Shown piece after piece: positions 16,972 through 64,000 of a DNA stretch of 64,000 nucleotides. Source of the stretch: an uncultured Bacillota bacterium (GTDB taxonomy: Bacteria; Bacillota; Clostridia; Christensenellales; UBA1242). The DNA lies in assembly GCA_938034555.1 (NCBI GenBank), contig CALHLT010000015.1, positions 4,786 to 68,785 of the forward strand. The letters run 5' to 3'. Position 1 is the first letter of the stretch, and every line of letters starts with the position of its first letter. The notes beneath the pieces were generated by a model that made no database searches, was not told the origin of the DNA, and worked only from the letters and a program-made list of their open reading frames with translations. The position numbers and the translations under genes are program-made.

Positions 16972-17001
16972 TTGACAATGTTAAAGCGCGATTTTTATAA
17001 T
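16972..17001 (+). promoter_or_regulatory. sigma-A-type promoter
   Basis: TTGACA (16972-16977), 18 nt, TATAAT (16996-17001). Confidence 0.6.
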
Positions 17002-17002
17002 C

Positions 17003-18604: not shown

Positions 18605-18679
18605 GCTTAAATTTTAACAATTACACTAGGAAAAAAGCGAGAAGAAAAAGGTCGATTTTTGTTGTATATGCGAGGGAAA

Positions 18680-20137
18680 ATGAAAAAACAAAAAATTTAC
18701 GAAGCTATTTATGAAATTGAAAATGAAATTGAAAAAAGAAACAAATACTGCGCGCTTGAAAAATATAACGCGGGCGAGAAAAAACACCTTAAACAACTTG
18801 AATTTCACAAGTGTTTAAAGCGAAACAGGTGGGTTTTTGGAGGAAACAGAAGCGGAAAAACCGAGTGTGGGGCGGTTGAATGTGTTTGGCTTGCAAGAGG
18901 AATTCATCCTTTTCGTCCAAACAAAAAAGATGTTTCAATTTGGGTTGTTTCGCTTTCAAAACAAGTTCAGCGAGATGTTGCACAAAGCAAAATTTTCCAT
19001 TATTTAAAGCCAGATTGGATTGAAGAAATTGTTATGGAAACAGGGAGCAAAGATTTCCCACAAAACGGATTTGTTGACTATATTCTTGTTAAAAATATTT
19101 TTGGCGGAACAAGCAAAATTGGATTTAAAAGTTGCGACCAAGGACGCGAAAAATTCCAAGGAACTTCGCTTGACTTTGTTTGGTTCGACGAAGAGCCGCC
19201 AGAGGAAATATATCGGGAATGCAAAATGCGCGTTATTGATAAAAAAGGTGAAATTTTTGGAACGATGACGCCGCTTAAAGGATTAACTTGGGTTTATAAC
19301 GAAATTTATTTAAACGAAGGCGGCGACGACGAGGTTTGGTCAATTTCAATGAACTGGGACGATAACCCATATCTTGACGAAGACGAAATTAAAAGCCTTA
19401 AATCTTGTATGAGCGAAGAAGAACTTGAAAGCAGATGCTATGGAAAATTTAAGAGTTTTGGGGGACTTGTGTATCCAGAATTTGACCCTCAAATTCATGT
19501 TGTCGAGCCGTTTGATGTTCCAAAAGAATGGTTTGATAAAATTTCAATTGACCCCGGACTTAACAATCCGCTTTCGGCGCACTGGTATGCCGTTGACTTT
19601 GACGGAAATGTTTATGTTATTGCCGAACACTATGAAGCGGGGAAAGACATAATTTATCATTCAAATTCAATTAAGCGCATATGCGAAAATTTGGGCTGGA
19701 AAACTGGGTTTGGCGGAAAAATTGAAGCAATAATCGACAGCGCGGCAACGCAAACAACCCTTGCAAGCGAAAAAAGTGTTTGTGATTTATTTTTTGAAAA
19801 TGGAATTTTGGCAAATCCGCATGTTAACAAAGACCTTTTTTCGGGAATTAACAAGGTTAAATCCTATTTAAAAAATGCGGAAGGGAAAAGCAAACTTTTC
19901 ATTTTTAAGAACTGCGAAAACTTAATTCGTGAAATTAAGGGGTATTTTTGGGGCAATGGCGATAGGCCAACAAAGAAAGATGACCACTCGCTTGACGAAC
20001 TTCGCTATTACATTATGTCGCGTCCGGAAAGCCCAAAAGTTGAAAAGAAAAAGACGGAAGTTGAAAAAGACAAGGAAAGGCTTATTCGAAAACTTGATTT
20101 TTCAAGAAAAACCTTTGGAATTAAAAAGTTCAAATAA
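18680..20137 (+). CDS. terL: phage terminase large subunit (apparently intact)
   Basis: Walker A GGNRSGKT, Walker B LDFVWFDEEP, and nuclease acidic motifs ISIDPG, IIDSAA, DDHSLDELRYY. Start chosen at ATG 18680 after GAGGG; the ORF track starts at TTG 18659. Confidence 0.9.
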   Translation: MKKQKIYEAIYEIENEIEKRNKYCALEKYNAGEKKHLKQLEFHKCLKRNRWVFGGNRSGKTECGAVECVWLARGIHPFRPNKKDVSIWVVSLSKQVQRDVAQSKIFHYLKPDWIEEIVMETGSKDFPQNGFVDYILVKNIFGGTSKIGFKSCDQGREKFQGTSLDFVWFDEEPPEEIYRECKMRVIDKKGEIFGTMTPLKGLTWVYNEIYLNEGGDDEVWSISMNWDDNPYLDEDEIKSLKSCMSEEELESRCYGKFKSFGGLVYPEFDPQIHVVEPFDVPKEWFDKISIDPGLNNPLSAHWYAVDFDGNVYVIAEHYEAGKDIIYHSNSIKRICENLGWKTGFGGKIEAIIDSAATQTTLASEKSVCDLFFENGILANPHVNKDLFSGINKVKSYLKNAEGKSKLFIFKNCENLIREIKGYFWGNGDRPTKKDDHSLDELRYYIMSRPESPKVEKKKTEVEKDKERLIRKLDFSRKTFGIKKFK

Positions 20138-20180
20138 TGGGAATAATAGAAAAGTGCTCGACAGAAAAGAAAGAATTGTT

Positions 20181-20522
20181 ATGTCATATATTTTTGTTAA
20201 CTGCGAAAATGGCGAAAAGGCAAAAACCCGTCTTTTTTCGTCGCAGGAAATTGTTGATGTTTTGGCAAAAAGAAAATATGTTGTTTCAACAAGCGAACTT
20301 AACGAAATTATGATTTCGCTTTCAAAAGAGGGGCTTATTGATTTTGTTCAAAGTGAAAGCAAAAAAGGAAGTGTTTTTTGTGTTTCGCTTAAAGAAAAGG
20401 GGCTTCTTTTTAAAAAAGACACCCAAAAAGAACGATTGCACGCTTCGTGGATTATACTTCGAACTGCGCTTTTGGCGGTTTTAAGTTTTGTTGTTGGTCT
20501 TTTGCTTAGAGCAATTTTTTGA
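20181..20522 (+). CDS. small tail-anchored protein with winged-helix-like N-domain (113 aa)
   Basis: ATG 20181 lies after the terL stop. C-terminal TM helix ALLAVLSFVVGLLLRAIF. The N-terminal part of the listed ORF (19929-20180) overlaps terL and was discarded. Confidence 0.5.
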   Translation: MSYIFVNCENGEKAKTRLFSSQEIVDVLAKRKYVVSTSELNEIMISLSKEGLIDFVQSESKKGSVFCVSLKEKGLLFKKDTQKERLHASWIILRTALLAVLSFVVGLLLRAIF

Positions 20523-20565
20523 CAAATTTTGGGAAATTTGAATTTATGTGCATTAAAATTTCAAT

Positions 20566-20592
20566 AAAGGGACGGCTGTTCCCTTTTTTTTG
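20566..20592 (+). terminator. rho-independent terminator
   Basis: AAAGGGA-cggctgt-TCCCTTT followed by a T-run. Confidence 0.7.
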
Positions 20593-36391: not shown

Positions 36392-36409
36392 AAAAGTGGC
36401 ACAAAATGC

Positions 36410-36438
36410 TTGACAATGATCTTTTGCAGAGCTATAAT
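36410..36438 (+). promoter_or_regulatory. hrcA-operon promoter
   Basis: Perfect TTGACA (36410-36415), 17 nt, TATAAT (36433-36438). Confidence 0.75.
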
Positions 36439-41724: not shown

Positions 41725-44700
41725 TTATTTCTTTCCGCCTGAGCGAGTAATTGTCAAATTACCATGGATTGTTACTTTAACTTCCATATATGCTTTCATG
41801 GAGACTGTTGATTTACACAAAAGACGTCCAGATTTGTTTGTTGTGTCGCAGGTTGCTGAATCAACATCTCCCCACTTGTTCCACGAATCAATTGTTGCGT
41901 TGCCAGAAATTGACCAGTTGATGTATGCCGAGTTAAATGCATATCCCCAACAGTGCATCGAAATTGTAAATTGAGTCCCTGCTTCAAGGCGTATTGTTCC
42001 GCTTTCAGCTCCGTTAACATTAAATGAACCATTGCTTCCGCTGGAACCAGTAATTGTAATCGTATACATAGTCTTTTTCAATTGCAAGGTGCAACTTGTA
42101 TATGACGACGTTATGCTTGTTATTTTTGTGTTTCTGTTAGTATCTGTAGATTTATACCAAGAATAATCAGTCTTTGATGGTAAAGCAATAGAAGTTCCAC
42201 TCTTTATAGATTTTGGAGTGTAAATCGTTGTTAAGCTTGTACAAGCGTATATCATATATGATGTGCTTGTAACACTTGACATATTAAAGTTTGAGATACT
42301 AAGTGAAGTTAATGCTGAACATTTGTAAAACATATAAGCCATATCTATAACATTATTAGTAACAAAGCTTGAAAGATTAATGAATGTAATCTTTACACAT
42401 TCAGAAAACATACTTGACATGTTTGTAACTTTACTTGTTACAAAATTGGAAAGATCAATTGAAGTTAATAGAGAGCATTCGGCGAACATACCCCCCATTT
42501 CTAAAACATTTGATGTATTAAAGCTTGATAAAGAAATTGAAGTAAAGTAATTATTTTCAGCAAACATATAATTCATACTAGTTACATTGCTAGTATCAAA
42601 ATTATCAAAGTTTATGCTAGTTAAATGCAAATGACATCCACTTCGGCTTATGTCTACTGTGTCATCATCGCTTGCAGCTATTGCATCGTAGTTTCTGCGG
42701 AATAAATTACTAGAATTTATAGGTGCATAGATAGTTACAGGGCTATAGAAGATGGCGTCATAATTACTTGAATCTCTTGAATTTGCCCTTAAATAAACAA
42801 TTATATCTGTTACTCCATAAGTGGAAGACGTATAATTAATTGTGCCAGCAGGGTTTGATGCTCCCACAGAAAGTGTTTTATAGCCTGATCCTGTTGGTCG
42901 AGTTTTTGTGAATTTGATTGTTGCTAAAGTATATGAATCAGATATCACATCTTTCCAATCTCTTCTTAAATACGACTTATTTAAAGTCCAACTTGCAGTG
43001 AAAGTAAAGTTTTTAGCATAGATGAAAACTTCATCTTGATCCCCTTCTGCGCTGTAGGTTCCATCTTTTTCAAAGGAAACATGCATGCCAGAATCTTCGG
43101 TGTACCAATCAAACGAATAACCAGTTCGTGTTGGGCAAGTTATTTTTTGATTTGAAAGTTCAGTTGTGCAAGTTGCGTTTGTATAGAACTTATTTCCATT
43201 AACTCTAAACCAAAGTTCACTCGTTCCTCCTGAGCCACCATTTTTGTTAAATGTTATTTTATAAATATTTCCATCTAATACTAAAGTGGTATTTATACAA
43301 GAAGAAGTAATTTGAGTGTAAGTGCTTGTTGTTCCTTGTTTAAACCAACCGTAGTTCGTTGGAGCGGTTGGTAAATCAACCGCCGTGCTGCCAATTGCTT
43401 TTGGAGTTTGAATTGTAGTTAATGCAGTGCAGTCGTTAAGCATATCTGTTGTATTTGTAACATTACTCATATTAAAAGAGGAAATATTGAGAGTGGTTAA
43501 TTTATAGTTATATGCAAACATTAGTTGCATATTTGTAACTTTACTGGTGTCAAAACTTGAAACATCAAGTGAAGTTAAAACTAAATTGCCTTGAAACATA
43601 TTATCCATGTTTGTTACATTACTTGTATTGAAATTAGTAAGCGTTAAACTGGTTAATTTTTCACAGACGGCAAACATATACTCCATAGTTGTAACCTTGC
43701 TTGTGTCAAAACTTGAAACATCAAGTGAGGTCAATTTTGCACATGATGCAAACATGAGTGCCATATTTGTAACCTTGCTTGTGTTAAAGTTTGAAACATT
43801 AAGAGAAGTTAAACTTCTACATGAAGCAAACATTCTTGACATATTTGTAACTTTGCTTGTGTCAAAGCCCAAAACATCTAGGGTTGTTAATTGTGTGCAA
43901 TATTCAAACATATTTAACATATCAGTTGTGTTGCTAGTGTTAAAATTCCCAAAAGAAATTGATGTAAGACTAGTTAAATTATAAAATAAACCATTTGAAT
44001 TAGTTGGTGAGTAAATTGTTACGGGACTATAGAAAACAACATCATATGTTGAAGTGTTTGAAGAGTTTGCTTTAACATATGCTTTAACATCAAAAACTCC
44101 ACAGTTATCATACCAATACATATCCTCACTGTTTGATTGAGAACCAACTGAAACAATTGTATAGCCAGAACCTGATGGGACTGTATTTGTAAAAGTAATT
44201 GTTTTAATCTTACTTTGCGTGTAATTTGAATTTTTAGATTGTAAAACCGTTTGCCAATCAGATCGTAAATAGGATTCATTCAAAGTCCAATGTGCGTAAA
44301 TTGTGTGGTTGGATACAGTTGAAACAATTGTTGTTTCAGTAACTTGCGTTCCGTCTGATGCTGCAGTCCACCAACCATTAAATGTGTAGCCAGTTCTTGT
44401 TGGGGTAGGAAGCGTTCCGTAAGCGGCATTGTATGTCACTTTCTTTGTTGCGGTTTTGCTTCCGCTTGCGATTGTCCAACCAGAAGTTGTTGGAATTGTT
44501 CCGCCGTTCGCATTTGCGGTTACGGTGTATCTATTAGCTGTCCAATGCGCGTAGATAGTGTGGTTGGATGCGGTTTTAACTGTTGTTGAGGACTCAACTT
44601 TTGACCCGCCAGTTTGAGCAGAGAACCAACCCGCAAATGTGTAACCGTTTCTTGTTGGAGTTGGGAGAGTTCCATAGGTTGAATCGTAGGTTACTTGTTT

Positions 44701-46134
44701 AGTTGCGGTTGCGCCGCCGCTTGCAACTGTCCAACCGCTTGTTGTTGGGATTGTTCCGCCATTTGCGTTTGCAGTTACGGTAAACTTATTTCCTTGCAAA
44801 ACTAAGGTTTTGCTAAGGCAAGCCGAGGTTATTTGAGTGTATGCGTTATTTGGGTTCGCTTGGTCGAACCAAGAATAATTGGTTTTTGTTGGCAAAGCAA
44901 CCGCCGTGCTTCCAATTGCTTTTGGAGTTTTAATTTCGGTTAAAGAGGAACAGCCAGAAAGCATCCAATCCGTTTTTGTAACTTTTGACATATCAAAAGA
45001 CGACAGATTAAGCGAAGTTAAGGAAGAGCAGTCAGAGAACATATACCTCATATCTGCAACATTGCTTGTGTTGAAGTTTGAAAGATTAAGCGAGGTTAAG
45101 GAAGAGCAGCTGGAGAACATATGATACATATTTGTAACCTTGCTTGTGTTGAAGCTGGAAATATTAAGAGAAGTTAAAGCCTTGCAATCGAGGAACATCT
45201 GAGACATAGATGTAACATTGGTTGTGTCAAAATTTGAAAGGTCGAGCGAGATTAAAGAAGAACAGCTCCAGAACATACCATGCATATATGTAACATTGCT
45301 TGTGTCAAAGTTAGAAAGGTGAAGCGAGGTTAAGGAAGAGCAGTAATAGAACATCTGCATCATACCTGTAACTTTGCCTGTGTTGAAGTTTGAAAGATTA
45401 AGCGAGGTTAAAGAAGAGCAGCCTTCGAACATACTATACATATTTGTAACATTGCTTGTGTCGAAGTTTCCAAAAGAGATTGAAGTTAAATTTGTAAGGA
45501 GATTTGCAGTTGTTGAATTACTAAACAAATAACTTGAATCTTTTGGTGCGTAAATTGTGTATGGAGAATAGAACGAAATTTTGTATTTTCCGGTTGAAAG
45601 GGCGGTGTAGTAGGCTTTAACATCAAAGATCCCGCAATCTTCTGCCCAAACTTTTGCGGCGGTTTCATCGGTTACGCCAACAGAGCCAATTAGGGTTGCG
45701 CCGCTTGGAACTGACGAAACAAATTCAATTTGTTCAATGTTTGCTTGCGAGCCAACGGGAGAGGCATTAACAATTGCTTGCCATTTTGGACCCATTGTTA
45801 AATATGCTTCGTTCTTAATCCAGTTTGCGGTTACGCGGCGATTGGAAGTAATATTTGTGTAGTCTGTCCAGCCGTTAAAGCTGTAGCCTGTTCGTGTTGG
45901 GTTGTTGGCTGGCGCAACTGCGTCGTGGCCATATGCAACTTGCTGAGTTTCGAAAACTTTGTCGTCGTAGTTTAAGAATTCAACGGTAAAGTATGGAACG
46001 GTGTATTTAATTGAGCCTCCCATATCAATCTGTTCTTTTTGTCCAGCGAAAACGCCAACAACAGCCCCTGTTGTTGCAAGAATTGTTATTGCAAATGCAA
46101 TAAAGAACTTACTCCAAAAACTCATTAACTTCAT
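41725..46134 (-). CDS. giant BspA-type leucine-rich-repeat surface protein with Listeria-Bacteroides (Flg_new-like) repeats (1469 aa)
   Basis: N-terminal signal/anchor. Three blocks of about 22-24-aa repeats ([27 protein letters not shown]). Tandem units read [17 protein letters not shown]...GYTFxGW. Confidence 0.85.
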
Positions 46135-48927: not shown

Positions 48928-50358
48928 ATGCCTAAGAAAAAATATGTTTATGCGAATAAAAGACTTCTTTTAAACAAAGATTCTTTGGAAAATGAAGACC
49001 AATTGTTTTATATTTCGCCGCTTCTTGCTAAGCAAATTGGCGAAAAATTTAATTTGGGCAAAAGCGTTGAGGAAAGATTTAAGTTATATTTTGAAGCACT
49101 TCATTATATGGGAATTTCGCCTTTGCTTGATGCAAGAAAAATTCGAAGAGATGTTGCGGATTTAAGAGTTGATAAATATCTTAGCTTAAATGATAGACAA
49201 GCATATGCAATAACGGATATTGCTGATGAAAAAATTATTTCAATTCGAAATAGTTTTAGGGAAAATAATTTTTGCACGATATTTCATGAAATGAATCATA
49301 TTTTTTCAAAGCATAACTACTCAAAAACTAACAAAGAATTTCAAAGTTTGAATGACCCTTTTTACGTTGATAAAGAAATCCAACACCAATTTGGATATTT
49401 CCTTGATTTTGGCGAGAATGAAAACGACAACTATAATCAATTTGATGAAGGAGTTACGGAATATCTTGCTTTAAGACAAGTTGCATATGCTGTTAAGCGT
49501 GATGTTCCTCTTGGGTCATATCGTTTTGAAGTTCAGTTTGTAAGAATGTTTTATTTACTTGCGGGGAATGCTCTTTTTGAAGGATATTTTAATGATGGCG
49601 ACTTTTCAAGAATAGCAAGAGAAATTGGGGTTGAAGATGTAACAGAAAAAACCATTAAATCAATTGCATATGCAATTTCGCAAGTGCAAAACCAAAGTAT
49701 GTCTCTTATGCTTGAAACTGAGGCTCTTTTAAACAAAAACATGATTTTGCTTTTGGCAGATAAAGTTGAGGGAATTGTTTGGGATAATTTGGAATTGTTT
49801 GAAAATGTTGGTGAAATTGAAAAACTTATTGGAAATGCATTTTCAAACTTCGCTCAAACATTCTATTTTGGTTCTTCCGAAAAAGAAGTTGATCAATTGT
49901 TAAGACCAGAAACTTTCAACTTTTTAACAGAAATGTATTTTAATCTTGTTGAAGATGTTAACGAGGACATTTGCGAAAAAGGGCTTGAAGAAAAATTAGG
50001 GCTTATTAACCTTGAAAACAAAACATTTGACGGTGTTTGCGATTTCTTTAAATTTATTAACAGCAGGAATTATGGAATTGTTCTTGTTGACGAAAAACCA
50101 TTAACTTTTGAAAACCTTCTTGCGCAAGAAAAAGTTTGCGTGTATAATGAAGCAAAAGGGAACTATATAAGAAAAAAACAAAAAATTGGGGATCCTCTTT
50201 TCATGGAGGAGTTTGGAAATCAAACGGATGTCCTTGACGGAATTTATAAGGCTGATGCAGCAAGACAGAAATTTAGCAAGCCACAAATTAAAGATTTTAG
50301 TGAATTTGAAAACGCTCAAACAGATGGCGAGCAAAACGAAGCCGAAATGGAAATGTAG
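48928..50358 (+). CDS. hypothetical protein with HExxH motif (476 aa)
   Basis: TIFHEMNHIF is a possible zinc-metallopeptidase motif, with a downstream EGVTEYL Glu. No family recognised. Confidence 0.65.
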   Translation: MPKKKYVYANKRLLLNKDSLENEDQLFYISPLLAKQIGEKFNLGKSVEERFKLYFEALHYMGISPLLDARKIRRDVADLRVDKYLSLNDRQAYAITDIADEKIISIRNSFRENNFCTIFHEMNHIFSKHNYSKTNKEFQSLNDPFYVDKEIQHQFGYFLDFGENENDNYNQFDEGVTEYLALRQVAYAVKRDVPLGSYRFEVQFVRMFYLLAGNALFEGYFNDGDFSRIAREIGVEDVTEKTIKSIAYAISQVQNQSMSLMLETEALLNKNMILLLADKVEGIVWDNLELFENVGEIEKLIGNAFSNFAQTFYFGSSEKEVDQLLRPETFNFLTEMYFNLVEDVNEDICEKGLEEKLGLINLENKTFDGVCDFFKFINSRNYGIVLVDEKPLTFENLLAQEKVCVYNEAKGNYIRKKQKIGDPLFMEEFGNQTDVLDGIYKADAARQKFSKPQIKDFSEFENAQTDGEQNEAEMEM

Positions 50359-50375: not shown

Positions 50376-51107
50376 ATGGGACAAATTATTAAATTTAGCA
50401 CACAAGAAGAATGGAAAGAAGCGGGAGTTGAACCTTCGGTAACTCGTTTTTTGAAAAAACTTTTCGTTGATTTGGACGACAGATATGATCCAAAATCTCC
50501 AATTAATTTGATTAACATTTTATATAACATGGGCGTTGAAGTTGTTGATATGGAATGCACAGACCGATCGGAAATTGCGCATCTTTCAATGGGCGAAGAA
50601 CCTCGTCGTCTTTTAATTGACACCATGGCTGTTGGGATGAATAAAAACGTTATGTTTGAAATTATGGCGGCGTGTGTTAAATATATTTACGACTGCAAAA
50701 AAATTATTGACCAAAACTATAACGAGCCAACGCCAGAACTTTTAAACATGTATCGCGAAATTGTTTCGGAAGCGGCCGACGATTTGCCTATTCCACGCTA
50801 TGAAAATTATGTTAATAAAAAAGGCGTAACAAAGAAAAGAAAACTTTCGCTTTCTGATAAAAAGTTATATAAAAAATATTTAATTGATAAGGAAGTTCAA
50901 TCTTTACACACCGAAGAAGGCTTTGAAAACTATAAGAAAACTTTAATTTCGGACATGATTTTTAGAGAAGGTTATCCGGACTATATTATTGAAAATATGA
51001 ACGGGTCAATTAGGGACGATGCAATCTTTGCAAAAGCGCTTGCTTCGCGCGATGCGGGATATGAAAAAGAGCCTTCAAAAATTGAATCATTTCACGAATT
51101 TGAATAA
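50376..51107 (+). CDS. hypothetical protein (243 aa)
   Basis: ORF 17 nt after the preceding gene, with SD GGAGGA. No catalytic motif recognised. Confidence 0.6.
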   Translation: MGQIIKFSTQEEWKEAGVEPSVTRFLKKLFVDLDDRYDPKSPINLINILYNMGVEVVDMECTDRSEIAHLSMGEEPRRLLIDTMAVGMNKNVMFEIMAACVKYIYDCKKIIDQNYNEPTPELLNMYREIVSEAADDLPIPRYENYVNKKGVTKKRKLSLSDKKLYKKYLIDKEVQSLHTEEGFENYKKTLISDMIFREGYPDYIIENMNGSIRDDAIFAKALASRDAGYEKEPSKIESFHEFE

Positions 51108-55700: not shown

Positions 55701-55735
55701 GTTTTGGCAGCCAATATTTACTTTTTAAATTTTAG

Positions 55736-55776
55736 CACCGTATAATTGAGAAAAAATCAATTATGCGGTGTTTTTT
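55736..55776 (+). terminator. 14-bp hairpin plus T-run at the host / phage-module boundary
   Basis: CACCGTATAATTGA-gaaaaaa-TCAATTATGCGGTG (one G-U) followed by T6, abutting ATG 55777. The 5' arm contains TATAAT. Confidence 0.7.
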
Positions 55777-56064
55777 ATGAGCAAAAGTATATCAGAAAAA
55801 GAAATTAAAAATGCGCTTTACAAAAAAGCAATTGGCTATGAAGCAAACGAAGTTGTTGAGGAATTTGTTTTGGACGAAAGCGGCGACTATAAATTAAACA
55901 AGAAAAAGGTTACGAAGAAACATATTTCGCCAGACCTTGCGGCGGTTAAACTTCTTCTTGAAAAACTTGAAAAGAAAACAGAAAAGTATGCAAATTTAAC
56001 CGATGAGCAACTTCTTCAAGAAAAGTTGCGTTTGCTTGAATTGCTTGAAAAAAACAAAAAATAA
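55777..56064 (+). CDS. terminase-small-subunit-like protein lacking an N-terminal HTH (95 aa)
   Basis: KKAIGYEANEVVEEF...KKKVTKKHISPDLAAVKLLLEKL resembles the central/C-terminal part of Firmicute phage TerS proteins, from memory. Sits immediately upstream of the portal. No SD. Confidence 0.4.
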   Translation: MSKSISEKEIKNALYKKAIGYEANEVVEEFVLDESGDYKLNKKKVTKKHISPDLAAVKLLLEKLEKKTEKYANLTDEQLLQEKLRLLELLEKNKK

Positions 56065-56163
56065 TTAAAAATTTAATGGAAATTGTTTTTTTTATCGTTA
56101 ATTAACTTAGTATTTAGCGATTTTTTTTCGCTTTATATATCAAATTTTTAAATGGAGGAAAAA

Positions 56164-58077
56164 ATGAAAAATAATTCAAACCAAACTGGCAGAGAACAAG
56201 TTTTTGAAGAGGATTTGGTTAAAGAAGTTTTGGACGATTTCAAAACAAGACAGCAAGAAAGAAAAAGTTTTGAAACGCAATGGGAACTTAACATGAATTT
56301 CCTTATGGGAAATCAATATTGCAGCATTGGCCCTTCGGGCGAGGTTGAGGAATATGACAAACAATTCTATTGGCAAGAAAGAGAAGTTTACAACCACATT
56401 GCGCCAATCATTGAATCTCGTTTGGCAAAACTTATTAACATGAAACCAACCATGACGGTTGTTCCAGCGTCGGGAGATGAGCGCGATGTTAAAACTGCAA
56501 AAATTTCCAAAAAAATTGTTAATGCTGTTTATAACAAACTTTGCGTTAGCGGTGTTATTTCGGAGGCGAACAATTGGAGCGAAGTTTGCGGAACAAGTTT
56601 TTATAAAGTAAGTTGGAACCCAGGCAAAGGAACAATTTTGAAAGATGACGAAATGGGAAAAGTTTGCAGCGGGGAAGTTGAGGTTACTGTTTGTCCACCT
56701 TTTGAAATTTATCCAGAGAGTTCAAGTTGCAGCGACATTGACAATTGTAAGTCAATCATTCATGCAAGAGCATATCACGTTGACGAAATTAAAAGCATTT
56801 GGGGCGTTGATGTTAAAGGCGAAGACATAAATGTTTTTTCGCTTGATAATGTTACAGCAATTGGCGGCTATGGCTATTTTGGAAACACAAGCAAAGTTAC
56901 AAGCGGTGTTAGAAAAAATTACGCAGTTGTTATTGAAAAATATGAGATGCCAACAGTTGAATTCCCAAACGGAAGACTTATCATTGTTGCTGGGGATAAA
57001 CTTGTTTATCTTGGAGAATTGCCATATTTTAACGGAAACGACGGCGAAAGATGTTTTCCATTCATTCGCCAAGCGTGCATTGAACAACCGGGTTGTTTTT
57101 GGGGCTCAAGCATTATTGAGCGCTTAATTCCTGTTCAACGTTCTTTTAACACTCTTAAAAACAGAAAACATGAGTTTATGAACAGACTTTCAATGGGCGT
57201 TTTGACGGTTGAGGATGGCTCAATCGATACCGAAAATTTGGAAGACGACGGGCTTAGCCCTGGCAAAGTTTTGGTCTATCGCCAAGGTGCAACGCCTCCA
57301 AGATTTATGAATTTCGACCGTGTTCCTGTTGATTTTGCAGCCGAAGAAAACATGCTTTTAAATGAGTTCACATACATAAGCGGGGTTTCCGATTTGCTTA
57401 GAAATTCACTTTCATCCTATTCAAACATGTCGGGCGTTGCGCTTCAAGTTTTGGTTGAACAAGACGACACTCGAATTTCAATAACAGCCGAAAAAATTCG
57501 CGAAGCAATTAAGACAATGGCAAAACATGTTTTGCGTTTATATCGTCAATTTGCAACCGTTCCTCGTCTTTCAAAAATTGTTGGCGACAACGGCGAAATT
57601 GAAGTTTTCTATTTTAATGCGTCCGACATATCAAGCGACGACATTGTTTTTGAAACAACAAACGAAGTTGGCGAAACAGTTGCGCAAAAACGCAGCATGG
57701 TTTTCGACCTTCTTAATGCGGGTCTTTTGCACGACGAAAACGGGAAACTTTCAAACAGAATGCGTGTTAAAGCGCTTGACCTTCTTGGCTTTGGTGTTTG
57801 GGAAAATGCGCAAGACATTAACGAACTTCACCTTAAAAAAGCGTCAAGCGAAAACCTTAAATTTTTGAAAGGTGAAACAAAAATTGAGCCTTTGGAAGTT
57901 GACGACCACGACATTCATATTTCGGAGCACACGGCTTTGATGCTTGGCAATGAATTTGCGAAAAAGGCAGAAAGAAACGAAAAACTTACTGAAATTGTTT
58001 TAAAACACATAAGAGCGCATAAACAAATGAAAGCGATGCAAGAGAGTATTGAAAATTCAAAGATAACGGAGAAATAG
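56164..58077 (+). CDS. phage portal protein
   Basis: About 637 aa. The N-terminal RQQERKSFETQWELNMNFLMGNQY pattern is typical of portals. Position before scaffold and coat fits. GGAGG lies 5 nt before ATG 56164. Confidence 0.8.
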   Translation: MKNNSNQTGREQVFEEDLVKEVLDDFKTRQQERKSFETQWELNMNFLMGNQYCSIGPSGEVEEYDKQFYWQEREVYNHIAPIIESRLAKLINMKPTMTVVPASGDERDVKTAKISKKIVNAVYNKLCVSGVISEANNWSEVCGTSFYKVSWNPGKGTILKDDEMGKVCSGEVEVTVCPPFEIYPESSSCSDIDNCKSIIHARAYHVDEIKSIWGVDVKGEDINVFSLDNVTAIGGYGYFGNTSKVTSGVRKNYAVVIEKYEMPTVEFPNGRLIIVAGDKLVYLGELPYFNGNDGERCFPFIRQACIEQPGCFWGSSIIERLIPVQRSFNTLKNRKHEFMNRLSMGVLTVEDGSIDTENLEDDGLSPGKVLVYRQGATPPRFMNFDRVPVDFAAEENMLLNEFTYISGVSDLLRNSLSSYSNMSGVALQVLVEQDDTRISITAEKIREAIKTMAKHVLRLYRQFATVPRLSKIVGDNGEIEVFYFNASDISSDDIVFETTNEVGETVAQKRSMVFDLLNAGLLHDENGKLSNRMRVKALDLLGFGVWENAQDINELHLKKASSENLKFLKGETKIEPLEVDDHDIHISEHTALMLGNEFAKKAERNEKLTEIVLKHIRAHKQMKAMQESIENSKITEK

Positions 58078-58081
58078 GATA

Positions 58082-58765
58082 ATGGAACAAGAAAAAATTT
58101 ATGGGGAACAACCAGCAGAAAGCGAGCAAGCACAAGAAGGAATTGATGAGAAAGAAGAAAATGAAAAAGACGGTGCCTCTACGTCGCAAAGCGGCTCCCA
58201 ATTTGGCAAATTCTCTTGCGCGGAAGATTTAGTTAATGCATATAACAATCTTCAAGCGGAGTTTACGAGAAAATGTCAAAAACTTAGCGAAATTCAAAAA
58301 CAAATTGCCGAAAAGGAAATTGAAGAAACTTCTTTGCAAAAAGATGAACCAGAAGAAATTTCTCCGGCGTTTGAACAAGACAACTGGCAAACAAAAGTTG
58401 CAGAGTTTTTGCAAAAAAACGATAGTGCAAAAGAATTTTCGCGCGAGATTTCAAATGAAATTTTGAAAGATAAAGACCTTCAAGCTTCGCCAGATATGCT
58501 TGAAGTTGCTTGGGCAAGGGTCCTTTCAAAAGTGTTTAAAACACCAAAACAAATGGCGCAAGAAAGTTCGTTTATGGAAGAGTTTGTCCTTTCAAACGAC
58601 GAAGTTAAAAAGCGAGTTTTGGGGTCTTATTTAAATGAGATTAGAAGCGCGCCAAATGTTATTGGAAGCAGCACTCGCGGAGGCGAAACCTTGTTTAAGA
58701 GAGTTTCAAAGCCAACATCGCTTAATGACGCAAAAGCGTTGGCGGAGAAATTATTAAAAACTTAA
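58082..58765 (+). CDS. capsid scaffolding protein (by position and composition)
   Basis: 227 aa, acidic and helical, between portal and coat. Confidence 0.55.
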   Translation: MEQEKIYGEQPAESEQAQEGIDEKEENEKDGASTSQSGSQFGKFSCAEDLVNAYNNLQAEFTRKCQKLSEIQKQIAEKEIEETSLQKDEPEEISPAFEQDNWQTKVAEFLQKNDSAKEFSREISNEILKDKDLQASPDMLEVAWARVLSKVFKTPKQMAQESSFMEEFVLSNDEVKKRVLGSYLNEIRSAPNVIGSSTRGGETLFKRVSKPTSLNDAKALAEKLLKT

Positions 58766-58872
58766 TTTAATTAAAAAAAACTTAAAAATTTAAGTAAAAA
58801 ACATTAAAAAACATGATTTTTTGATGTTTTTTCTTTAAATTGCGTTAGAAAAAATTTTGATGGAGGGAAAAA

Positions 58873-60117
58873 ATGGTTTCATTAACAAGTGCTAGCAACG
58901 CATTAAAAAATGTTTATTTAGGCGTTGTTGCAAACCAACTTAACACAAATGCAAACCCACTTCTTGGAAGAATTGAACAATCAACTTCCGATGTTTGGGG
59001 AAAGCAAATTATTAAACTTGCGCCATTTGGAATTAATGGCGGAATTGGGGCTGGAACAGAAACAGGAACTTTGCCAATTGCAGCAGAAAATCAATATGTT
59101 CAATTTGTTACAGACCTTAAAAACTTATACGGAAAAATTTCAATTTCCGATAAAGCAATGAGAGCTTCGGCAAACAGCGCAGGCGCTTTCGTTAACCTTT
59201 TAAACGCAGAAATGGAAGGGCTTGTTAAAGCAAGCAGCTTCAATTTTGGACGTATGCTTTATGGCGACGGCAGCGGCTTATTAGCAACTGTTTCAAGTTT
59301 CAGCTCTTCCGACGGAGCAATTTCTGTTGACAGCGTTCGCAACCTTATTGAAGGAATGGTTGTTGACGTTTATAACGGAACAACAAAAGTTGAAGCATCA
59401 AGCGGAAAGAGAATTAAGTTTGTTGACAGAGTTAACAAAAAATTCTATCTTGACGCAACAGCAAGTTCTTTAACTTTTGCTCAAAATTACACAATTTTTG
59501 TTCAAAATTCAAAAGGACTTGAAATAACAGGTCTTGGCGCAATTTTTGGCGAAGGAACAACTCTTTATGGGTTAACAAAATCTAACTATCCTTGGCTTTC
59601 ACCTTATAAAGATTCAACAGAAAAAGAAATTTCTGACGAAACAATTCAAGCGGGCTTGGACAGTTTGGAAGAAACAGGCGGGCTTAGCGCTAACTTCATA
59701 ACTTGCTCAAGAACTGTTAGAAAAGCATATCAAACATATTTGTCATATTTCAAGAGAAACATTGATGTTATGGATCTCGCAGGCGGATATAAAGCAATAA
59801 CATACAACGGAATTCCAGTTTTTGCAGATAGATTTGTTAAAGACGACGAAATGTATTTGCTTAACACCGACGAATTTACTTTGCATCAACTTTGCGATTG
59901 GAAATGGCTTGAAGGCGACGACGGAAAAGTTATTAAACAAAATCCAAACGAAGCAACATATTGCGCAACTCTTGTTAAATATGCCGACTTAATTTGCAAC
60001 AAACCAAACGCACAAGGAAAAATCTCTGGAATTAAATCCACTGTAACAAATCCTTTCAAGTCGACAACAATTGTTGAAACACCTTCAACAAACACAAACG
60101 CAGGCAACGGCGAATAG
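58873..60117 (+). CDS. major capsid (coat) protein
   Basis: 414 aa. Lies after the scaffold gene with a strong SD GGAGGG. The N-terminal LKNVYLGVVANQLNTNANPLL pattern resembles P22-coat-like MCPs of Firmicute phages, from memory. Confidence 0.75.
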   Translation: MVSLTSASNALKNVYLGVVANQLNTNANPLLGRIEQSTSDVWGKQIIKLAPFGINGGIGAGTETGTLPIAAENQYVQFVTDLKNLYGKISISDKAMRASANSAGAFVNLLNAEMEGLVKASSFNFGRMLYGDGSGLLATVSSFSSSDGAISVDSVRNLIEGMVVDVYNGTTKVEASSGKRIKFVDRVNKKFYLDATASSLTFAQNYTIFVQNSKGLEITGLGAIFGEGTTLYGLTKSNYPWLSPYKDSTEKEISDETIQAGLDSLEETGGLSANFITCSRTVRKAYQTYLSYFKRNIDVMDLAGGYKAITYNGIPVFADRFVKDDEMYLLNTDEFTLHQLCDWKWLEGDDGKVIKQNPNEATYCATLVKYADLICNKPNAQGKISGIKSTVTNPFKSTTIVETPSTNTNAGNGE

Positions 60118-60145
60118 TTTAAACAAAAAATAAGGAGCTTTAAAA

Positions 60146-60478
60146 ATGCTTGTTGAAATTTTGAATGACGTGTTTTTTATTGGAGCAAGACTTAAAGAAA
60201 TTGATGATGACTATAAAATTTTCTATAACACAAAAAAACAAAAGTTTGAAATTCATTGCATGGGGCAAATTGGGGGCAGTTATTGTTTAACTGTCCCTTA
60301 TGCTTGCCTTGACGCAAGAACAATTGAGTTTGTTAGGAAAACGAGAGTTGAAAACAGAGAAAAACTTATTGATGAAATTGATAAAGAAAACTTAAAAAAT
60401 CAAGAAAAAAACGAAAAAACAATATTAAACGAAGCAAAAGACAAATTATTTGAACAAATTAAATACTCAAAACTTTAA
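60146..60478 (+). CDS. hypothetical phage-module protein (110 aa)
   Basis: SD AAGGAG. No motif recognised. Confidence 0.55.
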   Translation: MLVEILNDVFFIGARLKEIDDDYKIFYNTKKQKFEIHCMGQIGGSYCLTVPYACLDARTIEFVRKTRVENREKLIDEIDKENLKNQEKNEKTILNEAKDKLFEQIKYSKL

Positions 60479-60492
60479 AAGGAGGATTAGAA

Positions 60493-61062
60493 ATGACAAT
60501 TAAAAGCATTTTGAAAACCGCTTGCATTTTTCTTCAAAAAGACGAACTTCTTTCGGTTCAAAGTCTTGACGGAACAGAAACCGAAACCGACGAGCAAACA
60601 AAAGAGTTAAGCCTTCTTCTAAGATGTCTTAATCTTGTTTTAAGCGAAATTGCAACAGACTACATTCCGCTTTTGAAAACCGAAACAGTTTCTTCAACTG
60701 ACGGGAAAATTTTGCTTTCATCTCTTTCAAAAGATGTTTTGGACATTGTTAAAGTTGAAAACAAATTTATGCTTTCCGAGCCATATAAGTTGTTCCCAGA
60801 CAGCATTGAAACAATCCCAGGCGAAGTTAAAATTACATATTCATATGAACCGGCAAAACTTGAAAGTTTAACAAGCGAAATTGAAAACTTTTCGGGCAAA
60901 TTAACCGACAGGCTTGTTGCTTATGGTGTTGCCATGGAATATTGTTTCATTTGCGGTCTTCACGACGACGCATCAATTTGGGAAAAGCGTTTTAAAGACG
61001 GTTTGTTAATTGCAGCAAGAAAAAAATCCACAATTCGTCTTCCAAAACGGAGGTGGATTTAA
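60493..61062 (+). CDS. head-tail adaptor-like protein (P22 gp4 position), 189 aa
   Basis: Assigned only by synteny and size. SD AGGAGG. Confidence 0.35.
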   Translation: MTIKSILKTACIFLQKDELLSVQSLDGTETETDEQTKELSLLLRCLNLVLSEIATDYIPLLKTETVSSTDGKILLSSLSKDVLDIVKVENKFMLSEPYKLFPDSIETIPGEVKITYSYEPAKLESLTSEIENFSGKLTDRLVAYGVAMEYCFICGLHDDASIWEKRFKDGLLIAARKKSTIRLPKRRWI

Positions 61063-62573
61063 TGATTTATAAAAATGAACTTCTTTTAAAAAATAAAATA
61101 ACAAAAAAACTTTCTCTTTCAACTTTTAAGCATGGAATTAACACGGAAACCGATGAAAGTTCGCTTCCATATAACTATGCAAAAGTTTCCTATAACTATA
61201 ATTTCAATCGCGGAGAACTTAAAACTGGAACAGGTTTTAAGATTTTAACGCTTCCGCAAACAAACACGGCAAACGCAACGATGCGCGAACTTCAAATTCT
61301 TGACGAATATACAAACCTTAACAAACTTTGGCTTTTTCCATACTATGACACAACATTCAACTATCGCGACCATATGCTTGTTTTAAGTTTCGATAACCTT
61401 GTTGAGTATGTTAAGATCATTGGAATTAACCCAGTTTTCAGCAACATCGACCTTAACGGAACGCTTCAATTCACATCAGAGCCAAGCGCTGTTTACTATA
61501 ACATTAACGGAACTGATGTTATGCTTGTAAGTTCGCCAACCGACGGAATGTTTAAGTTCCAACCGGCAACTTCAAGCGAACTTCTTGCGTCTGCGCCAAA
61601 AATTATTTCAATTTGCCGTCACTATGAGCGTGTTTTCGCAATTGAGGAAGGAAAACGAAACAAACTTGTTTTCAGCGCCAACCTCGACCCAACAAACTGG
61701 GATATGAATCTTGACAATGCAGGCTATATTGAAATTATTGACGACCGCGGATGTTTGCAAAAAGTTGTTAGTTTTAACGACTATGTTTACATATTCAAAG
61801 AATATGGAATTTCGCGTCTTTCGGCTTATGGAGACCAATCGGAATTCAGTTTGTCGAGTATGTTTGTTACAAGCGGAAAAATTTATGGAAATTCAGTTTG
61901 TGTTTGCGGGGACAGAATTATGTTCCTTGCGCGCGACGGAATCTATTCGTTTGACGGATATTCCGCAACAAAACTTTCGCTTAACATTGAATCGATGTTT
62001 GAAGACAACAACGACAAATGTTGCAGCGCATATCACAACGGAAAATATTACCTTGGTTGCCGTCTTAAATATGACGACAGCGAAGTTGTTGGGTGCGAAG
62101 CATTTTCGGGCGGATATATTAACAACTCTTTAATTGAACTTGACCTTAAAACGGGAGACATTAGTTTAACGCGCGGAGTTGATTTAAAAGATATGTGTTC
62201 AATTGAATATGAAACAGTTAATAAGCTTGCGGTTCTTTTTAACAATGAGCACAAGAAAAAACTTGGGGAAATGGACGCAAGTGGCGCAATTTTTGGTGTT
62301 CCGCTTAAAAAGATTTGGACTTCGCCATACACGAACTTGGGATATCCCGACAAAACTAAAAAAATAACAAAATTTACACTTGTTGCAAAGGAAAATTGCA
62401 AAGTTATCATCAAAACAGATCTTGAAACAAAAACATTCGAGGTGAAGGGGAAAAATTCAACCTCGGTTATCTATCCAAATTTAAAAGGCGAAATGTTTCA
62501 ATTTTCCCTTGAAACCGACGGCAGTCTTGCATCAATTGCCTGCCCGGAAATTACGATTGATATAAGCCGATGA
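61062..62573 (+). CDS. tail hub / stabilisation-like protein (P22 gp10 position), 503 aa
   Basis: Assigned by synteny and size. Beta-rich sequence. TAATG overlap with the upstream gene; the ORF track GTG 61053 is the alternative start. Confidence 0.35.
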   Translation: MIYKNELLLKNKITKKLSLSTFKHGINTETDESSLPYNYAKVSYNYNFNRGELKTGTGFKILTLPQTNTANATMRELQILDEYTNLNKLWLFPYYDTTFNYRDHMLVLSFDNLVEYVKIIGINPVFSNIDLNGTLQFTSEPSAVYYNINGTDVMLVSSPTDGMFKFQPATSSELLASAPKIISICRHYERVFAIEEGKRNKLVFSANLDPTNWDMNLDNAGYIEIIDDRGCLQKVVSFNDYVYIFKEYGISRLSAYGDQSEFSLSSMFVTSGKIYGNSVCVCGDRIMFLARDGIYSFDGYSATKLSLNIESMFEDNNDKCCSAYHNGKYYLGCRLKYDDSEVVGCEAFSGGYINNSLIELDLKTGDISLTRGVDLKDMCSIEYETVNKLAVLFNNEHKKKLGEMDASGAIFGVPLKKIWTSPYTNLGYPDKTKKITKFTLVAKENCKVIIKTDLETKTFEVKGKNSTSVIYPNLKGEMFQFSLETDGSLASIACPEITIDISR

Positions 62574-62632
62574 ACCTTGAAAATATAAGACTTAAAAACA
62601 TTGAAAATTTCAACAATCTAGGAGGAGTTAAA

Positions 62633-63559
62633 ATGGCCGAATATAAAAGCACAAGTTCCAAAAGTGATTTTGAAAAAGAAAAAGAAGAAACTTTTTCAAA
62701 ACTTCAAGAAATTGATAAAAAATATTCAAAAGAGACTTTTTCGCCAAAAGAAATTCAATCGCTTGGCTTAGAGAAAAAAGAATTTAATGCGCCAAGCGAA
62801 GATGAAATTAAAGCCGAAGCGGAAAACACTCTTAAAGATGAAAGAGAAAACGAAAGACAAAAACTTGAATCTTCATTCTTAAACAAATTTTCAAAATTGG
62901 AAGCAAAAATTGAGGACGCCGGAGATGAAAAAGAGGAATCAATTGAAGATGCTTTCAAAAATTATAAATCATCGCTAAGAAAAACAACCAACAGTTCGAT
63001 TAAGCAAGGAATTTCGCGTTCGTCAATTTTTAACGAAGCGGTTAAGGCAATTGAAGGAACAAAAGACGAACAGATTAGTTCCGCAATAAGCGAGTTTAAC
63101 AAAAACATCGAGCGCCTTTCGGGCGAAAAAGAGGTTTTGGAAATGCAAAAACAAAACGCTCTTGATGGGTTCGATATTTCATATGCAGTTAAACTTGAAA
63201 ATAAAATTGCAAAAATTAACAGCGAAATTTCGAGGCAACAGAAGGAAGTTGACAACTTCAACAAAGAAATTGACCGCAAGGAAAAAGAGTTTGTTGCGGC
63301 GCAAGAAAAAGGAAATAGCAAAGAGCAAAAACGCGTTGAAACCCATAATAAAAACCTTGAAAAACAGATTGAGAAACTTGGGAAAGATGGCGTTTTAAAT
63401 CAAATGCATTCTGAAAAGTATGATGTTGTTTTAAACTATTTAATGAAACTTCCAAAAGAGGTTGCGCTTAATGAACTTCAAAAAGACAATAGATATGAAA
63501 TGCTTTTAAGCAATTATTATCCTGCTGTTTATGCACAAATTTTAAACAGAAAGGAATAG
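62633..63559 (+). CDS. coiled-coil protein (P22 gp26 needle/plug position), 308 aa
   Basis: Long E/K heptad-like sequence. AGGAGG precedes ATG 62633. The ATGA-coupled start at 62570 is the alternative. Confidence 0.45.
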   Translation: MAEYKSTSSKSDFEKEKEETFSKLQEIDKKYSKETFSPKEIQSLGLEKKEFNAPSEDEIKAEAENTLKDERENERQKLESSFLNKFSKLEAKIEDAGDEKEESIEDAFKNYKSSLRKTTNSSIKQGISRSSIFNEAVKAIEGTKDEQISSAISEFNKNIERLSGEKEVLEMQKQNALDGFDISYAVKLENKIAKINSEISRQQKEVDNFNKEIDRKEKEFVAAQEKGNSKEQKRVETHNKNLEKQIEKLGKDGVLNQMHSEKYDVVLNYLMKLPKEVALNELQKDNRYEMLLSNYYPAVYAQILNRKE

Positions 63560-63565
63560 TATGAA

Positions 63566-63991
63566 ATGTGGCAAGACATTTTAAATATTGTTATTTCAAA
63601 CGGAATTTTTGCAACGCTTTTTGTGTGCCTTTTGGCATATTTGCTTAAGGACAGCGCAAAACGCGAAGATAAATACACCCAAACTATAAATTCTCTTAAC
63701 AAAAGTGTTAACGAAATTCGTCAAGCAAACGAAAAAGTTGACGAAATTAAAGAAGATGTTGGGGAGATTAAAGATTCTTCGAAAGAAAGCAAAAAAAATA
63801 TTTCTTTGGTTGCAAACGCAACAAAGGAAATCCAAGGAAAACTTGAACAAACAAGCTCCTCAATTTCGTCAATTAACGAAAACTTGAAAACGCACAGCAA
63901 ACTTATCAAAAAAGTTTCAAGAGATGTTAAGGGTGTTAAAAATGATGTTAAAGAAATTAAGAAAGTTGTTTTTCCAAAGGAGGAGTTATGA
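63566..63991 (+). CDS. BhlA/UviB-family holin-like protein with coiled-coil tail (141 aa)
   Basis: The N-terminus ILNIVISNGIFATLFVCLLAYLLKDSAKREDKY resembles the BhlA/UviB TM-plus-KxSxxRE motif. Confidence 0.55.
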   Translation: MWQDILNIVISNGIFATLFVCLLAYLLKDSAKREDKYTQTINSLNKSVNEIRQANEKVDEIKEDVGEIKDSSKESKKNISLVANATKEIQGKLEQTSSSISSINENLKTHSKLIKKVSRDVKGVKNDVKEIKKVVFPKEEL

Positions 63992-64000
63992 AAAATAAAT

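Follow-up and report, generated by a model that had tools for sequence, protein, structure and literature searches.

Within the searchable literature we found one close counterpart only, FpGTA, a gene transfer agent (GTA) of Faecalibacterium prausnitzii encoded in a podovirus-like 10.5-kb operon (PMC12946183, Nat Commun 2026). That operon comprises a small terminase subunit (TerS) without a DNA-binding domain, the large subunit (TerL), a portal, a major capsid protein (MCP), a nozzle, and a "TolA"-like protein; a second operon, for structural and lysis proteins, lies 125 kb away, and the ~40-nm particles contain 8.4 to 8.9 kb of random host DNA (PMC12946183). Nanopore sequencing of virus-like particles (VLPs) in the same study revealed GTA-like packaging of chromosomal DNA, in pieces of fixed size, from Christensenellaceae metagenome-assembled genomes (MAGs), namely HGM11616 (~4.1 kb) and QANA01 (~6.3 kb); the genes behind it were not identified, the gene search having covered only Faecalibacterium, Gemmiger, and Onthomonas MAGs (PMC12946183). 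Here we describe a set of phage-derived genes in a 64,000-nucleotide stretch (the window) from an uncultured bacterium of the Christensenellales (Clostridia; UBA1242; contig CALHLT010000015.1, positions 4,786 to 68,785). We consider it probable that these genes descend from a small podovirus whose remnant is fixed in the chromosome and inherited vertically, and that they now form a GTA-like element (viriform) of Christensenellales-type Clostridia, split into two loci. The remnant appears to have been reduced to the genes for a DNA-filled, short-tailed particle and for cell lysis.

The two loci together cover about 12 kb (16957 to 20586 and 55705 to 64365). Between them they encode a putative regulator (c16), TerL, a TerS-like protein in which the DNA-binding domain is missing, a portal, a protein in the scaffold slot, the capsid protein, an adaptor, a nozzle, a coiled-coil protein, and two holin-type proteins. 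One plus-strand operon at 55.7 to 64.0 kb (the cassette) contains the head, neck, and lysis genes; it was recognized from the listing of open reading frames (ORFs) and from profile searches. Its genes are closely spaced, and stop and start codons overlap at several junctions. For comparison we collected 80 loci, one per assembly and on 80 different contigs, and analyzed them by tblastn and ORF clustering.

The first cassette gene (G1, 55777 to 56064, plus strand) encodes a 95-amino-acid TerS-like protein that aligns with positions 191 to 246 of the 319 in phrog_309, terminase small subunit (E = 4.8e-8). Judged from this span, G1 is equivalent to the C-terminal region of a small terminase without the N-terminal DNA-binding domain; its conserved motif is ALxKKAxGY..E.VEEY...KKKVTKKH. 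The portal gene on the plus strand (641 amino acids if read from 56152; probable start at 56164, after GGAGGA; end at 58077) matches PF16510 P22_portal (1e-18), PF23899 SU10_portal, and phrog_156 (2.2e-40). It is followed by a 227-amino-acid protein (G3, 58082 to 58765, plus strand, in 78 loci), for which profile searches gave no significant family match and which we place in the scaffold slot by position only. The MCP (414 amino acids, 58873 to 60117, plus strand) matches phrog_14242 (5.1e-55) and NF033394 capsid_maj_Podo (2.8e-78), the latter being the sole MCP model in NCBIfam at E ≤ 0.1. An MCP profile found no capsid in the PDB at E ≤ 0.1, and the best tblastn matches among cultured phages were actinophage capsids at about 25% identity. 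Next comes a candidate head-completion or decoration protein of 110 amino acids (G5, 60146 to 60478, plus strand, in 74 loci), with only a weak match, to phrog_17018.

PDB sequence-profile searches with the adaptor and nozzle alignments returned nothing useful, and structure prediction was therefore used for the next two genes, with AlphaFold2 models computed from alignments of database homologs. The model of G6 (189 amino acids, 60493 to 61062, plus strand) has a predicted local distance difference test (pLDDT) score of 87.6. With this model, Foldseek retrieved adaptor or connector chains of KHP30, P1, SU10, Pa223, crAss001, N4, GP4, and VP1 (E = 4.5e-6 to 1e-3). G7 (503 amino acids, 61062 to 62573, plus strand) is modeled as a beta-propeller (pLDDT 87.9; predicted template modeling score 0.87), and its best Foldseek match is the Pa223 tail (9nwi_Y; E = 2.6e-22, TM score 0.74). 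Further top matches were VP1, GP4, the PhiM1 nozzle, P22 gp10 (8u10_1 and 9jg6_a), Sf6 gp8, SU10, and T7 gp12, and by sequence G7 belongs with phrog_3287, virion structural protein. As modeled, G6 is a head-to-tail adaptor analogous to P22 gp4 and the SU10 adaptor, and G7 is a tail nozzle analogous to P22 gp10 and T7 gp12.

A preliminary description of the window, made from the letters and their ORFs, had likened this module to the late genes of phage P22, and its ORF positions and gene list for 55.7 to 64.0 kb agree with ours throughout. Profile and structure comparisons bear out the portal, coat, adaptor, and nozzle, with the gp4 and gp10 analogies structurally correct on the models; the scaffold is supported by position alone, and the position of terL departs from the P22 order, as described below.

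The 3' part of the cassette encodes a 329-amino-acid coiled-coil protein (G8, 62570 to 63559, plus strand; PF25588 DUF7934, 7.2e-35), a candidate needle, plug, or internal protein. Behind it lies a BhlA/XhlA-type membrane protein of 141 amino acids (G9, 63566 to 63991, plus strand; PF10960 Holin_BhlA, 4.2e-14; phrog_2429), which we annotate as a putative lysis accessory. An ATGA overlap joins the G9 stop codon to the start of a Phage_holin_1-type holin gene (c10, plus strand), which occupies 63988 to 64000 and runs off the window. A representative of the c10 family matches PF04531 (1.1e-5) and phrog_297 holin (4.5e-12), and c10 stands behind G9 in 40 loci.

A 226-kb metagenomic scaffold of identical sequence (L001) extends the view 10 kb past the end of the window. 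There c10 ends at scaffold position 11753, and a terminator with a 15-bp stem (11764 to 11796, equivalent to window positions 64333 to 64365) closes the cassette. A run of N (an assembly gap, 11491 to 11577) falls inside the holin gene, which leaves this gene incompletely sequenced for the exact strain. Host genes begin right after the terminator (SDR, peptidase M1, trmD, a ylqF-type GTPase, yraN, pta, tsaD, ytfJ, and dacB), and these 10 kb contain no tail, terL, integrase, or att. On the other side, the cassette is preceded by ogg, nfeD, floA, and a gene for a 212-amino-acid membrane protein. In the ~74 kb formed by the window and the downstream 10 kb we found no integrase, repressor, or replication gene. 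The host setting proposed in the preliminary description is thus borne out upstream, and beyond 64 kb the sequence holds the holin gene, the terminator, and host genes, with no second terL, integrase, or att of the kind that would have marked an ordinary prophage.

The large terminase gene is present in the window, 36 kb upstream of the cassette (18659/18680 to 20137, plus strand), where it adjoins c16, c13, c19, and RNase J. Its product matches PF03237 Terminase_6N (1.4e-14), Terminase_6C, and phrog_2 (1.5e-31). The likely start is ATG 18680, behind the Shine-Dalgarno sequence GAGGGAAA, and the Walker A (GGNRSGKTE), Walker B (DFVWFDEEP), and nuclease Asp motifs are intact in translation. It is 69% identical to the 478-amino-acid TerL that directly precedes the cassette in relatives. 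The preliminary description had seen an empty large-terminase slot between G1 and the portal. The gap is indeed 87 nucleotides (56065 to 56151) and holds neither an ORF nor a terL, but a terL occurs elsewhere in the window. In relatives, moreover, terL lies upstream of the TerS-like gene and never in the G1-portal gap, so the "empty slot" was a misreading of the architecture.

Upstream of terL, c16 (17025 to 17774, plus strand) encodes a sigma-70 region-4/ECF-like regulator (PF08281, 1.3e-5; PF07638, 4.7e-5; phrog_36 and phrog_248, transcriptional regulator/activator). Its true start is likely at 17205 (MELKIWAKT...), giving 189 amino acids. It is syntenic with terL in at least 15 loci, and also in fragments from IMG/VR. 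We regard c16 as a candidate activator and the candidate first gene of an ancestral operon. Antisense between the two genes lies c13 (17756 to 18604, minus strand), encoding a 282-amino-acid membrane or secreted protein that gave no family match in Pfam or PHROG scans and is a conserved neighbor in 19 loci. Downstream of terL are a small ORF with a winged helix-turn-helix and a transmembrane segment, an ABC ATPase, an HTH_30 protein, the membrane protein c19, and RNase J. The ORF between terL and a terminator at 20566 to 20586 (20183 to 20522, ~113 amino acids) was read by eye as a winged helix with a C-terminal transmembrane helix.

The cassette is widespread in relatives of this bacterium. 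The MCP has more than 6,000 database homologs; the top 120 are 66 to 99% identical, and those that are named come from Christensenellales, Clostridia, and "Christensenella sp." MAGs. A scan with one genome per species found the MCP encoded in at least 496 GTDB species representatives, and an MCP profile run against 50%-identity cluster representatives hit 499 clusters at E ≤ 1e-30. G1 to G7 are present, intact, and in constant order in 80/80 loci as far as the contigs reach, and G9 and the holin are usually present. The flanks are ordinary host genes, kept within subclades. The module is therefore not limited to one strain, a point that the preliminary description had left to sister genomes, and its impression of intact genes extends to all 80 loci.

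Three arrangements were found. In the first, c16, antisense c13, TerL, G1, a small gene (c9), and the portal onward are contiguous, as in ~20 of the 80 genome loci, most IMG/VR fragments, and the distant loci L108 to L111. The second resembles this block with a surface-protein gene (c12) behind terL. In the third, terL is not within 10 kb of the cassette; this arrangement characterizes the clade of the window (L001 to L009) and a second clade (L046/L057 to L081). L108 to L110 and L111, sampled from the 50%-identity clusters, represent two further lineages with MCP identity below 50% and a minimal, chromosomal cassette to which terL is attached; L108 to L110 adjoin RNase J, an O-methyltransferase, and peptidase U32. 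Still more distant matches (L112 and L113) are genuine phages, with an SU10-type adaptor, giant polyvalent proteins, or DnaB. The IMG/VR fragments (L082 to L107; 47 to 68% MCP identity) mostly show the contiguous arrangement, and these "viral genome" entries are probably pieces of host chromosome rather than viruses.

The flanks bear on whether the element could be a phage satellite or capsid-forming island (similar to capsid-forming phage-inducible chromosomal islands, or cf-PICIs) that builds heads by itself and relies on a helper phage to supply induction, tails, or lysis. A content of head and packaging genes with no replication genes would suit such an island, as would the viral label that IMG/VR classifiers give to cassette fragments. 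Against this, no integrase, att, primase/rep, or helper-sensing genes were seen among the commonest flanking clusters of the 80 loci (inspected by eye and with spot Pfam and PHROG scans, singleton flanking ORFs left out). The chromosomal neighborhood is fixed and co-diverges with the host, and a podovirus nozzle of its own would leave the element with no need of helper tails. The separation of terL in at least two subclades is also incompatible with excision and packaging as a unit. Of the features that define capsid-forming PICIs (integrase, replication initiator, helper-dependent induction, and excision with self-packaging), the window has neither int nor rep, and its terL is unlinked. We consider a satellite very improbable.

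The comparison also accounts for the 87-nucleotide gap. In 41 loci a 72-amino-acid, Cys-rich (zinc-ribbon-like) ORF, c9, without a family match in Pfam or PHROGs, lies between G1 and the portal (e.g., L014, 7331 to 7555, and L060). It is absent from the window, where the gap marks a small gene lost in this lineage and not a terL. Relatives have the cassette flanked by terL on one side and c19/RNase J on the other, and the window keeps terL, c19, and RNase J together; it follows that the block from G1 to the holin moved ~36 kb, to the floA/p210 site.

Two neighbors in other subclades deserve mention. In 22 loci, c12 encodes a fast-evolving surface protein of 780 to 1,120 amino acids between terL and G1 (e.g., L021, 4015 to 6426, and L014, 3555 to 6917), with a Peptidase_M26_N-like region, an InlB B-repeat, a C-terminal membrane anchor, and a ratio of nonsynonymous to synonymous substitution (dN/dS) of up to 0.43. 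We considered c12 as a fiber and rejected it on account of the membrane anchor and its absence from the window. In L057 to L081 the cassette lies just upstream of genes that, from reading their sequences only, look like comEC (c21) and holA (c22). Uptake of RcGTA, a siphovirus-like GTA, uses competence proteins; the adjacency to comEC may be coincidence.

Pairwise Nei-Gojobori estimates gave dN/dS values of 0.02 to 0.44 for every cassette gene and for terL, c16, and c13. They were lowest for the portal (0.02 to 0.11), MCP (0.03 to 0.12), nozzle (0.04 to 0.23), and terL (0.02 to 0.07); the ranges for G1, G3, c16, and c13 were 0.05 to 0.25, 0.13 to 0.30, 0.04 to 0.3, and 0.05 to 0.17, respectively. 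Synonymous divergence (dS) of the cassette resembles that of the adjacent floA, nfeD, ogg, RNase J, and trmD-region genes; between L001 and L003, for example, it was 0.34 to 1.2 in the cassette and 0.43 to 1.8 in the flanks. MCP protein identity parallels FloA identity across L002 to L009, and the RNase J neighborhood recurs even in a relative whose MCP is less than 50% identical. The cassette has co-diverged with the chromosome under purifying selection, which does not fit decay or recent horizontal spread.

These values speak to the alternative raised in the preliminary description, an ordinary prophage with a truncated left arm, now decaying. Lysogeny, replication, and tail-fiber modules are missing, and c9 has been lost in the lineage of the window, as truncation would have it. 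Yet the genes are intact in 80 species, with low dN/dS and saturated dS; lineages with MCP identity below 50% carry this minimal gene set too; and the promoter and terminator architecture described next is conserved, with covariation. Of the hallmarks of a prophage, integrase and att, repressor or antirepressor, and replication genes were found neither in the window and L001 nor among the commonest flanking clusters of the 80 loci (inspected by eye and with spot Pfam and PHROG scans), and the distribution is clade-wide rather than patchy at strain level. We regard a decaying prophage as exceedingly improbable.

The two loci carry promoters of the same type. Ahead of c16 is a perfect sigma-70-type match (AAA-TGGCAG-CCATTG-TTGACA-N18-TATAAT, 16957 to 17001, plus strand), and the best promoter-like site of the cassette region is TGGCAG-CCAATA-TTTACT-N18-TATAAT (55705 to 55746, plus strand). 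The c16 promoter (16960 TGGCAGCCATTGTTGAC ... TATAAT) and the cassette promoter (55705 TGGCAGCCAATATTTAC ... TATAAT) have in common a 17-nucleotide pattern found nowhere else in the window, for which 0 matches are expected by chance. In L001 to L009 the 70 nucleotides before G1 are conserved despite saturated dS and contain, in order, TGGCAG, a -35-like TTTAC, an invariant TATAAT 17 to 18 nucleotides later, and a hairpin. Of 65 loci, 22 have the composite motif TGGCA[CGT]-N5-7-TT[GT][ACT]-N18-24-TA[TA]AAT ahead of G1, and none of these 22 has an adjacent terL; among other genes, 1 of 1,070 is preceded by the motif. Similarly, an element consisting of an A-tract, TG[GT]CA[CG], N6, and TTGA precedes c16 in 12 of 15 loci (other genes, 4 of 1,265), and it precedes terL or c13 in no locus.

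Since the same promoter type stands at both loci, both are predicted to fire together, and the terL/c16 locus and the cassette should be co-regulated. Most simply, an ancestral operon would have been driven from the c16 promoter, and this promoter type would have been duplicated onto the cassette at the split; the moved block bears a copy of it (TGGCAGCCA-N3-TTxAC-N18-TATAAT).

Other candidates for regulatory sequence were set aside. A 12-mer upstream of both terL and G1 (TTAAATTTTARC) was rejected because 7 of 100 shuffles reached two matches and it is unconserved in L004 to L009. A sigma-54 promoter at the TGGCAC-like element was rejected because the spacing and the GC at -12 do not fit and a canonical -35/-10 pair lies behind it. 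Plain k-mer counting upstream of G1 was dominated by A/T-rich words. The c16 leader (17008 to 17204, ~200 nucleotides) contains the short inverted repeats GTTGCTTTGCAAC, TTGCTTGGCAGCAAC, and TGCAATAAATTGCA and belongs to no Rfam family; an Rfam scan reported two tRNAs only and no known riboswitch in this leader.

The cassette begins right after a terminator hairpin, as the preliminary description had noted: a 16-bp stem with a U7 run (55734 to 55772, plus strand) that abuts the G1 ATG. Among 8 species, 4 of the 16 predicted pairs show compensatory changes. The invariant TATAAT lies inside the 5' arm of the hairpin, and its pairing partners vary. We suggest that the cassette promoter is embedded in a terminator. 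The hairpin would terminate read-through from the upstream gene (p210), and transcripts starting at the embedded promoter would lack the 5' arm and so escape termination. GGUG in the 3' arm, then unpaired, might act as the Shine-Dalgarno sequence for G1.

Taken together, head and packaging genes lie in the chromosome without replication, integration, or lysogeny modules. They are inherited vertically under purifying selection over a host clade, as seen in the occurrence in at least 496 species, in synteny, and in dN/dS and dS, and they occupy more than one chromosomal locus, with co-regulation predicted from the common promoter pattern. A retained set of packaging, head, neck, and holin genes, loss of replication, lysogeny, and integration functions, clade-wide vertical inheritance, and a multilocus layout constitute the signature of a GTA. 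The conservation, the selection, the terL 36 kb away, and the common promoter element support the working hypothesis of the preliminary description, a domesticated GTA-like system with dispersed parts.

We envisage that such an element would produce particles, package DNA at random, and deliver it to recipients. A subpopulation of cells would activate both promoters, and procapsids would form on the portal and scaffold. Arbitrary chromosomal DNA would then be packaged by the headful mechanism through TerL and a TerS incapable of sequence-specific DNA binding. The adaptor and nozzle would seal the portal, and release of the particles might involve the BhlA-like protein, the holin, and a lysin supplied by an unlinked locus or by the host.

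Several observations weigh against this interpretation. The ~74 kb examined yielded no receptor-binding protein, tail fiber, or endolysin, and G8 is absent or replaced in a large subclade (L046, L057 to L078). A looser version of the promoter pattern also matches the hrcA promoter (36397 to 36438), and the element may therefore not be exclusive to the two loci. All relatives are MAGs, and exact protein matches gave no usable link from the fetched loci to the HGM11616 and QANA01 assemblies. FpGTA particle production has been seen experimentally, whereas for the Christensenellales element it is predicted from the genes.

The first two of these points are also what an alternative function would draw on, in which a domesticated particle packages DNA and is released by lysis but does not deliver its contents, serving instead as a source of extracellular DNA or another public good, as a phage decoy, or in killing or self-lysis. 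For the chromosomal defective phage PBSX of Bacillus subtilis, a killer or self-lysis role has been argued. The cassette and the surrounding 74 kb show no receptor-binding protein or tail fiber, G8 is dispensable in one subclade, and the authors of the FpGTA study leave delivery open (PMC12946183). On the other hand, the adaptor and nozzle, which make up the DNA exit channel, are under strong purifying selection that is hard to explain without ejection. Killing of the PBSX type would need a contractile tail, which is absent, and fibers may be encoded elsewhere, as they are in FpGTA operon II and in RcGTA. We judge a role without transfer less likely than the GTA-like reading, but a real alternative.

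Returning to the GTA-like reading, the cassette is a strong candidate for the gene set behind the GTA-like packaging reported in Christensenellaceae. The ~4.1- and ~6.3-kb fragments of that report stem from genera other than that of the window. If confirmed, the element would be only the second podovirus-like GTA and would place GTAs in a further major order of gut anaerobes. Christensenellaceae and other Christensenellales are prevalent in the human gut microbiota. Confirmation would also provide a natural example of a domesticated virus broken into separate loci with co-regulation kept, with consequences for horizontal gene flow and for how "viral" contigs and VLP DNA in gut metagenomes are read.

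The remainder of the window encodes mainly host functions, including addB/addA, dnaB, RNase J, feoB, bipA, two tRNAs, hrcA-dnaK, a DUF285 surface protein, a MiaB-like enzyme, and rplU-prp-rpmA. An 848-amino-acid ORF with AT-hook motifs (11330 to 13876) lies next to addAB and dnaB, where AT skew is extreme (0.42 at 12 to 14 kb). The DUF285 surface protein (1,469 amino acids, 41725 to 46134, minus strand) has six DUF285 repeats and Listeria-Bacteroides (Flg_new) repeats and is encoded by the sole large minus-strand gene of that part of the window. Directly upstream of rplU, two adjacent ORFs (48928 to 50358 and 50376 to 51107; 476 and 243 amino acids) have no Pfam or PHROG match.

Phage P22 resembles the element in its portal type (PF16510), a scaffold gene before the coat gene, an adaptor fold followed by a nozzle fold, and a coiled-coil protein at the gp26 position. 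It differs in having terL between TerS and the portal, an arrangement seen neither in this genome nor in its relatives, and in its tailspike, ejection proteins, lysozyme, and immunity, integration, and replication genes, all absent from the window element. The adaptor resembles the SU10/KHP30/Pa223 type more than P22 gp4, G8 is only a positional analog of gp26, and the sequence relatives of the MCP, at ~25% identity, are actinophage and metagenomic podovirus capsids.

A Firmicutes precedent for a chromosomal defective phage that packages host DNA, as we propose for the window element, is PBSX. It encodes a sigma-like protein, Xpf, just upstream of its terminase genes, a position reminiscent of c16, and it pairs an XhlA/BhlA-type protein with a holin. 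It differs in being a myovirus-like tailocin of ~28 kb with a contractile tail, the repressor Xre, and an amidase.

RcGTA is likewise a domesticated, vertically inherited head and packaging cluster under purifying selection; its TerS has no specific DNA-binding domain, its accessory loci are scattered over the chromosome, and lysis releases the particles (PMC12946183). A tail tube, tape measure, and fibers mark RcGTA as siphovirus-like, whereas the window element, which has just an adaptor and a nozzle, is podovirus-like. RcGTA also has an HK97-type protease and an MCP of another lineage, and it is under CtrA/GafA control.

The likeness to FpGTA is the closest. Both are chromosomal podovirus-like operons of ~10 kb in a lineage of gut Clostridia, without replication or lysogeny genes; FpGTA is near-ubiquitous in its host genus, and the cassette is distributed clade-wide. 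The parts lists correspond, down to a scaffold-slot gene, small conserved proteins, a nozzle, and a coiled-coil protein (the one annotated "TolA" in FpGTA), and in both cases the parts lie in more than one locus. The differences concern gene order and content: terL follows TerS in FpGTA, whereas in Christensenellales it ancestrally precedes the TerS-like gene and in the window is 36 kb off. The window cassette itself holds the holins, and unlike FpGTA it has no second operon for fiber, receptor-binding protein, or endolysin that we could find. The FpGTA MCP is named as N4-gp56 family (RCH50849.1) and the window MCP matches NF033394 only, a comparison made by family name that points to a different capsid lineage and, since the capsid families differ, possibly to independent domestication. 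We therefore advance, more tentatively than the GTA-like reading itself, the possibility that an ancient GTA runs through the order Christensenellales, was domesticated independently of FpGTA, and is wired by a promoter element (TGKCAS-N6 before the -35) that was copied at the split. If so, podovirus-derived GTAs would have arisen repeatedly in gut Clostridia, and the TGKCAS-N6 element could be used to find genes for fibers, receptor-binding proteins, and lysins genome-wide.

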